Positions 11,064 to 35,950 of a stretch of DNA of 64,000 bases are shown one piece after another. The notes beneath the pieces were generated by a model that saw nothing but the letters and a program-made list of their open reading frames with translations, searched no databases and had not been told where the DNA came from. Made by a program: the position numbers and the translations under genes. Origin of the DNA: a virus (lineage: Duplodnaviria; Caudoviricetes); IMG/VR virus record IMGVR_UViG_3300028172_000069, one strand, 5' to 3'. Each line of letters opens with the position of its first letter. Position 1 is the first letter of the stretch.

Positions 11064-11073
11064 AATAAATTAG
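11064..11073 (-). promoter_or_regulatory. CTAATTTATT putative phage late-promoter motif (representative copy)
   Basis: Recurrent sense-oriented motif upstream of genes/RNAs; see findings. Confidence 0.45.
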
Positions 11074-11093
11074 CGATTTGGACCTCAGAAACG

Positions 11094-28722: not shown

Positions 28723-28729
28723 GAACAGT

Positions 28730-28803
28730 TGGGACGTCTGGGACTTGAACCCAGGACCACGCCGATTAACATTCCGGTGCTCTACCGACTGAGCTAACGT
28801 CCC
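28730..28803 (-). tRNA. Atypical tRNA-Asn(GTT) with tRNA-Lys-like body, no encoded CCA
   Basis: GGGACGT/ACGTCCC acceptor, D and T arms intact; anticodon arm CCGGA-ATGTTAA-TCGG is imperfect. Confidence 0.75.
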
Positions 28804-28804
28804 A

Positions 28805-29113
28805 TTAGTCTTTGAGTGCAACTCCGACACTCACTGCCAGACAGAACTTGCCATCGGGATTCGTGAAGAACGATCCGCCATAGGTGTAAGCCTGTCTGGT
28901 TTTGTTCTTGATCTTGCGCAAGTGATTCTTCATCAACTTGCGGATCGAGGAAAGAAGCAAGCGACGGTCGCTGGTGTCGTTGACCGCCAGCACTTCGTTG
29001 ACCGTGACATACTTGTCGCCGAGCTTCGGAACTTGACCCTGGTCCAAATGGACAATGTCCAATGAGCACGAGGTAAACAGCAGTTTGATTTCTTCCGCAG
29101 TCATCTGACTCAT
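28805..29113 (-). CDS. Hypothetical protein between tRNAs
   Basis: 102-aa ORF. Confidence 0.6.
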   Translation of the reverse strand: MSQMTAEEIKLLFTSCSLDIVHLDQGQVPKLGDKYVTVNEVLAVNDTSDRRLLLSSIRKLMKNHLRKIKNKTRQAYTYGGSFFTNPDGKFCLAVSVGVALKD

Positions 29114-29220
29114 GGATCAGTTTCCAAAGCAGCGTGTAGGCAGGGCCAGTAACCGGTAATACCGTCACTGCTCTGATGTACTAGCGAATAGCGTTCTATC
29201 AGAACTCTGGCCCACAAAAA

Positions 29221-29296
29221 TGGTAGGACGTCCGAGACTCGAACTCGGGACCCTCGGATTAAAAGTCCGGTGCTCTACCAACTGAGCTAACGTCCT
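29221..29296 (-). tRNA. tRNA-Lys(TTT)
   Basis: 76-nt cloverleaf, loop CTTTTAA, CCA encoded. Confidence 0.95.
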
Positions 29297-29478
29297 AGAA
29301 AACAATCCCGCTTGCACAGACGAGTGGGCTTCTGTACTTGTGAACAGAGTCAGGGCGGGTACCTGTGGTCATTGCCAATACAGCGCCGTCCACGAGTTTC
29401 AGGCCGCATCAACAATCTAACTCTGGTTCGCTACCTCGGGCACGGCCAGCTTTGCAGCGCCCACTGAGGTTTTGAATA

Positions 29479-29554
29479 TGGCTCCCGCTCCTGGACTCGA
29501 ACCAGGGACGCCACGGTTAACAGCCGTGTGCTCTACCGACTGAGCTAAGCGGGA
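29479..29554 (-). tRNA. tRNA-Asn(GTT)
   Basis: 76-nt canonical cloverleaf, CACGG-CTGTTAA-CCGTG, G73, CCA. Confidence 0.97.
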
Positions 29555-29728
29555 AGGGTAAAGTGTGCGGTTTCGTGCGCATCGCCAAGGATAAACGTGC
29601 AAATCGTATCTTGGCTAACAGGCACAGCTCGTTCAAATTGCGAAGCAGCCTCCGCGTACGGTCAGCGCTCTTTTACGTTTCCCAGTAATCCACCACAAGC
29701 TTGCTGGGTGTGCTCGCTTTGCAACGAA

Positions 29729-29944
29729 TCAGGCATTGCCGGTATACGCGACAAACACCTGCATGTTTTCTTTCACCTCGACAGGACTGCCTCGAGGTGT
29801 GAGGACACCACCGCCGTGACCTTTAACTGACCAGGTCACTGTGTACACCACGCTCGGGTCTCGACCGTCGAGTTTGACGGCTTCTTCGTAGCTGATGGTG
29901 CGGCAGACAAACTCATGCGGCTTTGCATTCACAAAAATTTGCAT
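29729..29944 (-). CDS. Stand-alone ubiquitin-like (multiubiquitin-type beta-grasp) protein
   Basis: IFVN.KPHE....ISYEE.VKL.....YTVTW....GGGVLTP.GS.VEVKENM.VFV matches the bacterial multi-Ubl pattern as recalled. Confidence 0.75.
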   Translation of the reverse strand: MQIFVNAKPHEFVCRTISYEEAVKLDGRDPSVVYTVTWSVKGHGGGVLTPRGSPVEVKENMQVFVAYTGNA

Positions 29945-29961
29945 GGCGGTGCTCTCGGATG

Positions 29962-30038
29962 TGGCGACTCCAACGGGACTCGAACCCGTGACCTCTGGCG
30001 TGACAGGCCAGCATTCTAACCGACTGAACTATGGAGCC
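29962..30038 (-). tRNA. tRNA-Asp(GTC) copy 2
   Basis: 77-nt cloverleaf, CTGTCAC loop, CCA. Confidence 0.97.
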
Positions 30039-30043
30039 GAAAG

Positions 30044-30120
30044 TGGCGACCCGGACGGGACTCGAACCCGTGACCTCTGGCGTGACAGGCCAGCATTCTA
30101 ACCGACTGAACTACCGGGTC
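30044..30120 (-). tRNA. tRNA-Asp(GTC) copy 1
   Basis: 77-nt cloverleaf, CTGTCAC loop, CCA. Confidence 0.97.
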
Positions 30121-30326
30121 TATGATCGTAGCTTGCTCAACAAATTAGCTATCTGCAATTTCGCGCTCGGCAGCATAAGGGCAATGCTGAGCCCGATAGG
30201 TGCGACGTGTGCGTACTTCACAAGTGTGTTGGTGAAATACAACGCAACACCGACTAGCACGTAGGCAGTCCAAACACACGCATCGTACCGCGTTTCGCAG
30301 AATGGCTTGAAGATTCGCTTGAGCAT
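30120..30326 (-). CDS. Small membrane protein
   Basis: 68 aa, two hydrophobic segments; stop codon overlaps the tRNA-Asp 5' G. Confidence 0.55.
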   Translation of the reverse strand: MLKRIFKPFCETRYDACVWTAYVLVGVALYFTNTLVKYAHVAPIGLSIALMLPSAKLQIANLLSKLRS

Positions 30327-30369
30327 GTGTATTACCAAAAGCAGAATTGTGTGGCTCTGCTTTACAGAA

Positions 30370-31161
30370 TTGGTGCCAGCAGGTAAACTTACCGCACGTA
30401 CTCGTTGCTGGGGCGGGCAACGTGGACCAGTGTGCGTACCAAGCAGCGTGGCATTACCTTATCGAACAGCTTGGGTGCCGTATTCCCAAACGCTCTATCT
30501 GACGTGCTGCATTTCATCGGCTCCGCGTAGGTACCAGACGAATGATTAGGTGCCTCAGACTCGTTACCGCGTCAGAACCAGAAGGAGATTAGAGTTCACC
30601 ATGTGCCAGGAGTTGAAATTGGGTAGCCCGGTCATTCGACCGTAGCATCTGTTCTCTATCCTGCGCGCAGCGGGCGATCCTGTAACGTCTCTTAAATTCT
30701 CAGTAAGAAGTCGAGCCTGAGGCGAAAAATGAAACCCACCTAGAAGATGGAAGGCTTATGCTAATGTCGCGGCGGAATTCCTGCTGTCACTACCCAAAGC
30801 TGAAGGGCTTGATCTGGCTGGCTCGAAGCTGCGTTGTGTTGGCTTTCTTTCCTTTACACTTCTAGGTGGGAGTGGTTGCGACTTCCGAAGAAGCCGAGCG
30901 AGCAACTGATTCCTGGGTTAGAGGCCCAACACCGCATCCAGTAATACAGAAGGCAACCGTGCGCTTGATAGGCGATCACTCTAGTCCCTTGTACGTTGCG
31001 CAGAGACAAACGCAACGGCACGCCAACGCAAGACTCACGCGGCCTATGCTCCGCAATTCATCCATTAACCACAGCAGGAAATTCCGTGGTGACGGTCCGG
31101 GAAATCGCCCCTTTGACCGCTGAACTCAGCCGCACAGCTTATCAGGCCGTTGGCTGTCGCA
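30370..31161 (-). ncRNA. Putative large structured ncRNA downstream of the hammerhead (3' boundary uncertain, 30370-30550)
   Basis: Long-range 15-bp and 12-bp helices, UUCG hairpin, no credible minus-strand ORF. Confidence 0.6.
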
Positions 31162-31223
31162 GACTCCGTAGAGTTTCGTGGGCCTTTCACCCATACACGG
31201 ACTTGAACCGTTCATCAGTGCGA
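31157..31223 (-). ncRNA. Type I hammerhead ribozyme with an inserted hairpin
   Basis: TCGCA-CTGATGA-[ACGG-TTCAAGT-CCGT]-G..stem II..C-GAAA-CTC-TACG-GAG-TC-TGCGA; full core plus stems I and III. Confidence 0.82.
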
Positions 31224-31239
31224 GTAATGAATTAGCATT

Positions 31240-31500
31240 TCGAGATTGGCCTGCACCGTACATCTGGCTTCGTGCAAGCCTCTCCTCGATTCAGCAACCG
31301 CAGCCAATGGCGGCGCCTTTGTGGTTTGTGCGGGATGGGATCGCTGGCCGGATCAGGTACCCATCCCTATCTACATCGCGCAGCCTGACTTCCGGCAGGC
31401 GATGGTTCTGTTTGTGGTTGCAGCGCTTCACCCGATTCCGGCGGGTGTTGCACTGTCTGGAGCCTGACGCTGCACAGGCTCAAAATGAAGATCAGCAAGG
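31240..31500 (-). ncRNA. Putative structured RNA (dense hairpin array)
   Basis: Four 6-8 bp GC-rich hairpins in 150 nt; non-coding. Confidence 0.45.
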
Positions 31501-31507
31501 TGTGTCC

Positions 31508-32008
31508 TTACGCAGGTTGTTCGACGTGCTCGGTGAGACGGCCGAATGCCAGTTTGTGAACAGCAAACAGTTCGGTACCGTCTGCACCGTTGAAGGCGCG
31601 CTTGACGCTGGCGTGCACCACGTTTGCCAGTTTGAGATACTTGACAGTTTCACCATCAGCTCCAAACTGACGCAGGATGATCGCGTCAAGCTTGGTGGTC
31701 TTGAAGGCTTCGATACCGTCGAGCACTTCCTGTTCGGCTGGAACGAAGTCGCTGAACGCAAACTCCGCAGCTTGCATCATTGCACCCGCAGCAGGATCAG
31801 ACGCAAAGACGAAATCTTGTTCGGTGATCTTCACAGTTCTCAGGTTCAGCTGGAGTGCCTGAATGGCATTCACCAGAACTGGCGCCACTTCCTGAGAACA
31901 GTCGATCCGCCACAGGTCAAAGTTGTCGTTCAATGCGATCTGTTTGATCGCGGTAACGTCATCCAAACTAACCTTGCCTGCAACGGTAAGCTGTACTGAA
32001 TCCGACAT
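31508..32008 (-). CDS. Hypothetical protein
   Basis: GGAG RBS before MSDSVQL; CTAATTCATT 20 nt upstream. Confidence 0.7.
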   Translation of the reverse strand: MSDSVQLTVAGKVSLDDVTAIKQIALNDNFDLWRIDCSQEVAPVLVNAIQALQLNLRTVKITEQDFVFASDPAAGAMMQAAEFAFSDFVPAEQEVLDGIEAFKTTKLDAIILRQFGADGETVKYLKLANVVHASVKRAFNGADGTELFAVHKLAFGRLTEHVEQPA

Positions 32009-32047
32009 AGCAATCTCCGTGCTTGTCAATGAATTAGCAATCGCGGT

Positions 32048-34515: not shown

Positions 34516-34639
34516 GTTCGAGTTATCCAGCTTTGTCGCATAGCGACGAGTTCTGATTTGTGCGAACTTTTCAGCCGCACGCCTTTTCGACCGCGGGCGA
34601 ATAGCTTCCTTGTTACCTCACCCTAGCGAGTAGGCTCCT

Positions 34640-35010
34640 GAAAGCCGAAGGCTAAAGAAAAGACCACGACCTCCGAGCGAAGCGAGAGGTCAAAGAAATC
34701 CCACCGACAGCTACCAGCTACCAGTTCTCTCAACCAATAGCTCTGGAACCTACGTTCCGACCTAAGCACTGAACAACTTTCAGAGGCGACCTGTTCACAA
34801 GGTGAATTCAGGAAGCAGACTTTGGCCTTTCGATTAACGCCGGAGCGTTACGTTAAAGCACTGGAGGCAGTGCCCTAACGTAAATCCCCGTTGGTGTGCG
34901 GTGCTCGAAAGAGCTGGTGTCTTTCGGTACACGCTTCCCTCACTTCGTTCGGTCTGTGCCTTCGGCACATGGACTTTTCTTTCTCTATCGCTTCGCTTCG
35001 CTCCGCTGGT
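34640..35010. repeat. Two opposite-strand clusters of GAA-triloop (GCGAAGC / GCCGAAGGC) elements
   Basis: See findings. Confidence 0.5.
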
Positions 35011-35418
35011 CCGTGCCTGAGTGTCACCCTGATGCGTCTTGGAAGACTTCCTGGGTAGGCGACGAATTACAGAGAAGCGCATTCTGAAAAGGCACCGTGT
35101 GTGCCGAAGGTGGAGAATGGAATGGTCAGATGAGGACGAACGGACGTGAGTGCGAAGATGCGAAGTAACTTCGTGAGTGTTGACAGTTCCTAAAACCAGC
35201 AAACTGAGGGGTCAGTGGTCATTTTTTGGACAATTTGGTTAAAAAATAACCGTCCGCTCTGGAAGCAGCGTGTGGACTGACTTCCAGCGTGGTCGAAGGC
35301 AAACAAAAACATGGTGAGAAACGACAGGTCCTCGTAGTCCTAGCGCAGCTACGCATACGCCTAGGAGGGTCACTTTGGAGCTTCAATGTTTTTCGTCCAA
35401 ACAACTGCACTTTTACAA

Positions 35419-35918
35419 CTGCAATCAGTAGTGCAGCCGCTTGGGTCGATTTGCTGTTTGGTCCATTCCTCGGCACCGCGGTTGCTCGGGGCGTGCACCA
35501 AATGCGAAAAGTTGGGTACTGCTGTAATCAGTAGTTTTGCTGTAATCAGTAGTGCAAACCGACGACTTTGCACGAGGCACTCATTTCCTGACGCTGGCGG
35601 TATGTCTGGCCTAGGCCTAGCGCGATTTCTCACTTTCCGAGGGGTCAAAAACGCTGTACAAAAATTGATCAAATCGCGAATTATATTTTCAAACGGGCGT
35701 TTGAACAGCCCTTCATACACACCAAAGCGAGGTCACTTTGCCAAGAAACGAACCTACACGCTAACCGCGGTCCTCTGTGGCATGGTACAGCGCGATTCCT
35801 CAGGACCGCACTTTTGAGGACGATCCTGAGAAACGCACGAAAGGTCGCGTGGAACTAGCGTATCCTGACGAAACAAGCACCGACGGGATTTTTCGATTTT
35901 AGCTGCAATCAGTCGTGC
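35419..35918 (+). repeat. Four copies of CTG(C/T)AATCAGT(A/C)GT in the 1.4-kb non-coding region
   Basis: Copies start at 35419, 35522, 35540, 35903. Confidence 0.8.
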
Positions 35919-35950
35919 AAATGCAGGTCCCGTGCGGCCAAAGCAGGTTT

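Follow-up and report, generated by a model that had tools for sequence, protein, structure and literature searches.

A candidate large structured non-coding RNA headed by a hammerhead motif in jumbo phages related to Pseudomonas phage PaBG

Genomic context of the region

The window, by which we mean the entire 64,000-nucleotide stretch of DNA analyzed here (IMG/VR record IMGVR_UViG_3300028172_000069), belongs to a jumbo phage related to Pseudomonas phage PaBG, as placed by the proteins encoded next to the region of interest, including a DUF1353 tail-chaperone-like protein with 78% identity to its PaBG counterpart. PaBG is a member of Baikalvirus with a genome of 258 kb. All genes around the region are carried on the minus strand, and their order is identical in PaBG, where it consists of a Tad2-like gene, gp317, a 1.5-kb unannotated gap, tRNA genes and the chaperone gene. 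The 166-aa open reading frame (ORF) upstream of the region is a homolog of gp317, with 25% identity. The features of the locus are the following:

31226–31236, minus strand: promoter-like motif GCTAATTCATT, 2 nt before stem I of the hammerhead
31157–31223, minus strand: type I hammerhead motif, directly before the conserved core, as seen in the comparison of lineages
30975–31161, minus strand: domain B5′, multi-hairpin
30724–30974, minus strand: domain B3′, a GGUUGC/GCAACC helix around three hairpins, including 30895–30880
30722–30760, minus strand: variable linker that contains a U tract and overlaps with the 3′ arm of the B3′ long-range helix
30552–30723, minus strand: domain C1, an imperfect, rod-like hairpin (about 60 bp) with the closing helix 30723–30712/30563–30552
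30364–30551, minus strand: C2, a lineage-specific extension at the 3′ side, with conservation only among close relatives
30335–30363, minus strand: AU-rich hairpin AAAGCAGAG...UUCUGCUUU with U after it, which may be a 3′ end or a terminator
30121–30326, minus strand: small hydrophobic ORF of 68 aa that ends one base before tRNA-Asp and forms the downstream limit of the non-coding zone
28728–30120, minus strand: five tRNA genes (Asn, Lys, Asn, Asp, Asp)

The first-pass annotation had seen no credible minus-strand ORF in 30370–31161, and this was borne out, with no minus-strand ORF longer than 55 aa in the surrounding zone (30327–31507). The short ORFs of 30370–31161 are interrupted by single-base indels (at 31003, 30547, 30505 and 30374) in the related contig L152, and the substitutions in L152 have no three-base periodicity (17/20/15), which together exclude a hidden gene. 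The 68-aa ORF shows the opposite pattern, with identities to L152 of 87, 91 and 70% at first, second and third codon positions, and is evidently a real gene because the differences are mostly synonymous or at third positions. This ORF was missed by gene callers on related contigs, and PaBG contains an unannotated small hydrophobic ORF at the matching position (L004:10476–10658) as well as another unannotated ORF with a lipoprotein-like start (L004:9483–9718). In L157, the position of the small ORF, between the RNA region and tRNA-Lys, is occupied by a PDDEXK_5 nuclease gene (L157:2917–3354), which marks the 3′ side of the RNA as a place of variable insertion.

The same strand has a second zone poor in genes, about 1.4 kb long, at 34516–35950. 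Patches with 97–100% identity to L152 (35205–35026, 34847–34788 and 34608–34490) are separated there by variable patches, the L152 counterpart has no called gene, and the syntenic place in PaBG is an unannotated gap of 1.5 kb (L004:4522–6000). Rfam models gave no match to this zone, which may be another non-coding RNA island.

Relatives and sequence conservation

Near-identical copies of the region (98–99%) were identified in IMG/VR, and homologs were found in five further lineages, with one copy per genome that is always situated between the gp317-like gene and the tRNA genes. L152, a 208-kb Logan contig, was reached via the neighboring 166-aa protein (only 59% identity), and an exhaustive HMMER search with the same protein identified homologs with 29–32% identity on contigs L157 and L159/L160, which contain the homologous non-coding region. 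L163, a complete genome of 277.6 kb with one RNA copy, was found in IMG/VR by the exact conserved 18-mer CTTCTGGTTCTGACGCGG, along with two chance matches. The order of gp317-like ORF, hammerhead, RNA and tRNA genes persists even where the identity of the ORF is only 25–32%, and every lineage has tRNA genes downstream of the RNA region.

We built a model for the hammerhead (R1) and, from the closest clade (W) alone, covariance models for domain B5′ (R2) and domain C1 (R3). The three distant lineages used for structure tests, L157, L159 and L163, are 58–69% identical to the window, and each was matched once by R2 (E-values of 1e-37 to 1e-41) and once by R3 (1e-18 to 1e-21), at full length and at the syntenic place. 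PaBG and the 219-kb contig L006 have the hammerhead core in common with the window. Beyond the hammerhead, PaBG retains no more than a weak match to the first domain, which was the best non-self match of R2 (11 bits, E = 0.009) and lies directly after the PaBG hammerhead; a sequence-only profile of B5′ gave E = 0.58, as compared to 0.009 with the structure model, and the match of the C1 model to PaBG (7 bits) was not significant.

Other searches returned little. No match was obtained with R1 and R2 in five other related jumbo-phage records collected via the DUF1353 chaperone, near which these phages have neither tRNAs nor the RNA. A blastn search of the region against 50,697 phage records was likewise without match, and the PaBG gap matched PaBG itself only. 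The exact core word CTGATGANNNGTTCAAGTC in IMG/VR mostly hit a cyanophage coding sequence, the exact 18-mer GGTGAAAGGCCCACGAAA gave only chance matches in metagenome and genome collections, and the contig found with the N-terminal part of the Tad2-like gene as anchor stops before the region. The RNA family is narrow, and is so far restricted to PaBG-like jumbo phages.

The identity of the window to L152 in the non-coding zone was as follows:

31507–31224, non-coding: 87.7%
Hammerhead: 98.5%
Segment B, 31161–30722: 94.5%
Segment C, 30721–30335: 91.7%

Third codon positions in five flanking ORFs are only 56–65% identical between the two sequences, and the limits of the high conservation match the ORF boundaries. 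The higher identity of the non-coding stretch indicates that it is under purifying selection. From the 166-aa ORF to the hammerhead, a further 280 nt (31224–31507) are non-coding, too, and have minus-strand structure, with double-sided pair changes in L152 (31443/31433 and 31360/31339) and 5 disruptive changes as compared to 9.7 expected (P = 0.02).

A hammerhead motif at the start of the conserved RNA

The first-pass annotation had described the RNA as ribozyme-led, and the comparison of lineages agrees, with a type I hammerhead directly in front of the conserved core. Its elements in the window are:

31223–31219 with 31161–31157, minus strand: stem I
31218–31212, minus strand: core CUGAUGA
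31211–31197, minus strand: stem II, a T-arm-like hairpin
31196–31178, minus strand: inserted hairpin
31177–31174, minus strand: GAAA
31174–31163, minus strand: stem III with a UACG loop

Model R1 identified a single syntenic copy per genome in W, L152, PaBG, L006, L157, L159 and L163. A canonical type I parse, with a stem I of 5–6 bp, CUGAUGA, stem II, GAAA and stem III, was obtained in six lineages, and the catalytic core is complete in the window and five other lineages (C3–A9 CUGAUGA; G12–A14 and A15.1 GAAA). All three stems covary across the six lineages: stem I occurs as UCGCA, GUUGCA, GUCGCA or GCGGA, each with a matching partner, stem II as ACGG, GUGG or CGG, and stem III as CUC, CUCU or CCC. 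The cleavage site is GUC or GUA in these six lineages and the conserved RNA begins after it; the GUC site of the window predicts a cut at 31162|31161, that is, exactly at the first base of the conserved RNA. We infer that the hammerhead cleaves itself and thereby makes the 5′ end of the RNA.

The hammerheads of L157, L159 and L163 are of the plain form with a 13-nt stem II, and comparison with these identifies stem II of the window as the T-arm-like hairpin ACGG-UUCAAGU-CCGU. The hammerheads of the window, L152 and PaBG contain a hairpin insert of 19–30 nt between stem II and G12, which in the window is the 19-nt hairpin GUAU-GGGUGAAAGGCCC-AC. Insertions in the hammerhead core are expected to weaken cleavage (PMC3088659). 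The U-U closing pair seen in stem II of L163 corresponds to a variant reported to be active (PMC3088659). This natural series, from plain type I to a hairpin-inserted core, bears on the tolerance of the hammerhead core.

The Rfam hammerhead models did not match the window even at E <= 10, and the L157 hammerhead scored 28.8 bits, which is below the gathering threshold of 48.5. In L006, the expanded hammerhead core (L006:2036–2182, minus strand) is identical over 22–23 nt, and no canonical parse of stem I or stem III was found for it. This core is followed by an unrelated, strongly folded non-coding stretch of 316 nt with a strong terminator at its end (L006:1760–2075, z = -3.4).

Evidence for a conserved fold on the minus strand

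The conserved core spans about 616 nt on the minus strand, from 31161 to about 30546, and is made up of three domains with about 180 conserved base pairs in total. To avoid circularity, the fold was predicted from the window sequence alone and its pairs were then checked in other sequences. Across 31161–30335, the substitutions in L152 break 6 pairs, as compared to 14.5 expected, and none of 2,000 permutations was as low; in segment C (30722–30335), 3 changes were disruptive as compared to 10 expected (P = 0.0005). The pairs predicted from the window alone fared as follows in L157, L159 and L163:

B5′: 85.7% paired, 16 double-changed (slid controls 32–47%, 0–3)
B3′: 77.4% paired, 7 double-changed (slid controls 36–40%, 0–3)
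C1: 87.3% paired, 13 double-changed (slid controls 35–44%, 0–1)

The window-only fold of the three domains thus includes 36 compensatory pairs and retains 77–87% pairing at 58–69% identity. This is the covariation across related phages that the first-pass annotation had proposed looking for, and its reading of the region as a large structured non-coding RNA beside tRNA genes gains a conserved, covarying minus-strand core. The folding energy of the whole region (792 nt) is ordinary (z = -0.15 for the minus strand, +0.96 for the plus strand), and C1 is the only domain of exceptional thermodynamic stability.

The high nucleotide conservation and the inverted repeats could also be explained by an element acting at the DNA level (an origin of replication, a packaging site or sites of protein binding, for example), with a conservation unrelated to RNA. 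We consider this extremely improbable. Base pairs are kept through G-U pairs on the minus strand only, and the ratio of consistent to disruptive changes in segments A, B5′ and C is 24:9 for the minus strand but 9:26 for the plus strand (13:3 and 6:14, respectively, in segment C alone), an asymmetry that argues for RNA instead of DNA and for the minus strand. Dozens of compensatory pairs and a hammerhead consensus on the RNA strand likewise argue against a DNA element, and neither iterons nor an AT-rich unwinding stretch were found.

Domain architecture

Domain B5′ consists of five hairpins and a closing helix, and the later domains contain further elements:

31156–31127, 31120–31092, 31090–31068, 31063–31031 and 31021–30991, minus strand: hairpins of B5′
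31126–31122 with 30987–30983, minus strand: closing helix of B5′
After the enclosed hairpins and before the long-range helix, minus strand: conserved purine-rich strand AGUGUAAAGGAAAGAAAG of B3′
30870–30859 with 30746–30735, minus strand: final long-range helix of B3′

RNAalifold predicted 54 pairs for B5′, of which 16 are compensatory, 57 pairs for B3′ (8 compensatory) and 57 pairs for C1 (13 compensatory). The minimum free energy of C1 is -65.1 kcal/mol (z = -3.63), and none of 200 shuffled sequences was as stable.

All individual motifs in the first-pass annotation were found where it had placed them, and they differ in how far they are conserved. The 12-bp perfect inverted repeat 30735–30746/30859–30870 proved to be a genuine long-range helix, kept with covariation and different sequences in every lineage. 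Perfect inverted repeats of at least 12 bp occurred in 8 of 500 dinucleotide shuffles, and the duplexes of this helix range from -17 to -25 kcal/mol, with 0–1 of 200 shuffles as good. Its arms are:

Window: CCCACCUAG/CUAGGUGGG
L159: CUCACCUGA/UCAGGUGAG
L157: GCUCGUCCUG/CAGGGCGAGC

The second proposed long-range helix (30773–30787 with 31071–31086) is present as a repeat of 10 bp, or 15 bp counting one bulge, but is strong only in the closest clade: L152 has three uncompensated changes, pairing in L159, L157 and L163 is at shuffle level, and the 5′ arm is part of a local hairpin with covariation in four lineages and PaBG. The palindrome CTGCGCGCAG (30661–30670), suggested to drive dimerization, exists but is not palindromic in the relatives; it sits in the 5′ strand of the C1 stem and pairs inside the rod. 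Similarly, the C(UUCG)G hairpin is present with a loop that changes in the relatives, and the two copies of GATCGCC are not conserved there. The GTTGCG/CGCAAC and CGGTC/GACCG hairpins are both present. The sequence GGCACCA that ends the 30370–30535 part in the window becomes GAC-CCT in L152, and a tRNA-like CCA end was rejected on the basis of this lack of conservation and of the absence of Rfam or ARAGORN matches.

Between B3′ and C1, the linker is hypervariable, with 10 substitutions in 12 nt (30755–30744) and a U run that lengthens from 5 to 7 and then 10 in L152/L153. We considered whether the region might encode several small RNAs, one from 31161 to about 30725 that ends at the U tract, and another that comprises C1 with or without C2. 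The U-rich linker (30760–30722) between B and C1 is in line with such a division, as are the separate folding of the domains, with no supported helix that joins B to C1, and the situation in PaBG, which has the first domain and no significant match to C1. Yet B5′, B3′ and C1 always occur together, with constant order and spacing, in the W clade, L152, L157, L159 and L163, and no promoter-like motif lies between the domains. Moreover, the possible terminator-like hairpin at the linker reaches only -8 kcal/mol, no better than shuffles, and a terminator in the middle of the region was rejected for this reason. A division into several RNAs is accordingly judged quite improbable, and we infer that the region gives rise to a single RNA molecule.

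The sequence downstream of C1 behaves differently. The suggestion that 30370–30535 may be a separate RNA was right in so far as the 3′ part is something apart, not conserved in the distant lineages: the last 200 nt (30545–30335) are not alignable and their structure is not conserved there, and for the C2 fold 50% of the pairs were retained as compared to 37–45% in controls, with a poor alignment. The AU-rich hairpin that closes the non-coding zone has a folding energy of -9.5 kcal/mol in the window and -12.2 kcal/mol in L152 (z = -3.8), and the L152 substitutions in it fall in the loop or add a pair.

Candidate transcription signals

The promoter-like motif in front of the hammerhead occupies this position in L152 and L157 too, and near-identical minus-strand copies of GCTAATTCATT precede the 166-aa ORF (32038) and another gene (11074). 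A general form of the motif, GCTAATT(C/T)(A/G)TT, was found at:

32028–32038, minus strand: before the 166-aa ORF
11064–11074, minus strand: before the gene at about 11034
30139–30149, minus strand: before tRNA-Asp

The last of these is a looser copy, 18 nt before tRNA-Asp and inside an unusually conserved stretch of the small ORF. PaBG has a copy after the Tad2-like gene (GCTAATTGACT). From its placement, GCTAATT(C/T)(A/G)TT is a candidate phage-specific promoter element. A scan for sigma-70 promoters gave nothing above shuffles, and no antisense targets of the RNA above chance were found elsewhere in the window.

The region might instead be a cis-acting leader, that is, the structured 5′ part of a precursor of the small ORF and the tRNAs that serves in processing, stability or attenuation; the long-range helix 30870–30859/30746–30735, for example, might compete with a local hairpin before the U tract. 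The location directly upstream of the small ORF and tRNA genes, on a shared strand, would suit a leader, and in L159 the non-coding zone abuts tRNA-Lys. Likewise, the 3′ arm of the long-range helix overlaps the terminator-like hairpin and the U tract, and some local hairpin is possible at the linker in each lineage; this hairpin is, however, weak and no better than shuffles. Furthermore, about 180 conserved pairs in three domains are far above what known attenuators need, tRNA-Asp has a separate promoter-like motif 18 nt before it, and the spacing and content between the RNA and the tRNAs vary from the small ORF here to the PDDEXK gene in L157 and about 1.1 kb in L163. On balance, we regard a cis-acting leader as unlikely.

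A candidate gene for a large structured RNA

Our main reading, to which we assign a probability of roughly 0.65, is that PaBG-like jumbo phages encode in this region a large structured non-coding RNA that has not been catalogued. Transcription would proceed on the minus strand, probably from the motif at 31236–31226 or by read-through from upstream. The hammerhead (31223–31157) at the front of the transcript would cleave itself after C31162 and release the downstream RNA with a 5′-hydroxyl end at U31161. The core would then fold into a five-hairpin domain, a multi-branch domain tied by the long-range helix and a rod-like hairpin of about 60 bp, and in the clade of the window another 200 nt would follow the core, up to the AU-rich hairpin, before the ORF for the small membrane protein and the array of tRNA genes. 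In L159, where a tRNA follows the non-coding zone without a gap, the 3′ end could be made by RNase P. The product would be a stable folded RNA that acts in trans, for instance as a scaffold, a decoy or a catalyst.

A bolder version of this reading, which we put forward tentatively and hold to be rather unlikely, is that the RNA represents a new ornate phage RNA class, a hammerhead-released RNA-only machine that is either a self-assembling scaffold like GOLLD and ROOL or a new catalyst. Such a machine might work alongside the neighboring counter-defense genes (the Tad2-like sponge and the tRNA island).

To our knowledge, very few bacterial or phage RNAs are as large and as well supported by covariation as this one, and every earlier example has given rise to a new field of study. 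For GOLLD, ROOL and OLE, structures have become available only recently and functions are still lacking. PaBG is cultivable, infects PAO1 and carries the hammerhead and the first domain, so that processing, abundance and phenotype are directly testable.

Comparison with known RNA classes

The first-pass annotation had proposed an RNA of the GOLLD or ROOL type or else a new class. A large conserved multi-domain covarying fold beside phage tRNA genes, as in GOLLD and ROOL, is indeed present, but no covariance model of either family matched, nor did any other catalogued family. At the gathering score, Rfam gave no match to GOLLD, ROOL, tmRNA, RNase P or group I introns in the whole window, and at E <= 10 no match to these or to hammerheads in 29900–31700; at E <= 1, neither GOLLD (RF01998) nor ROOL (RF03087) was found in L157 and L159. 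The only Rfam hits in the window, PaBG, L157 and L159 were tRNAs and the one sub-threshold hammerhead in L157.

Several other candidates were rejected. Neither Rfam nor ARAGORN gave a match to a tmRNA, an RNase P RNA or a group I intron, and the idea of a two-piece tmRNA was dropped. An RsmY/Z-like GGA sponge was dismissed because GGA is not enriched by count, and a retron or CRISPR-like element because there is no reverse transcriptase and there are no repeats.

GOLLD and ROOL are large RNAs of phages and prophages that often lie beside tRNA genes and are perhaps co-transcribed with them (Weinberg et al., 2017; PMC5737381), and their multimers have been seen by cryo-EM (PMC12286853). The RNA described here resembles them in its size of about 0.6–0.8 kb, its multi-domain and protein-free-looking architecture, and its location in a phage next to tRNA genes. 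It differs in that the window matches neither covariance model even at E <= 10, in its host range, being from PaBG-like jumbo phages of Gram-negative hosts, and in having a hammerhead in front and a long rod-like hairpin inside. GOLLD and ROOL form multimers, and the candidate palindrome of the RNA in the window is not conserved.

The hammerhead itself is comparable to the hammerheads in phage intergenic regions and operons (Perreault et al., 2011; PMC3088659; Rfam clan CL00010), with which it shares the full catalytic core, the three stems, the GUH site, the intergenic location in a phage and the strand of the neighboring genes. Unlike these, it is of type I with an open stem I, and it contains an insert and a stem II that resembles a tRNA T-arm. 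Finally, while those hammerheads punctuate protein genes, the hammerhead of the window heads a conserved non-coding RNA of 600 nt.
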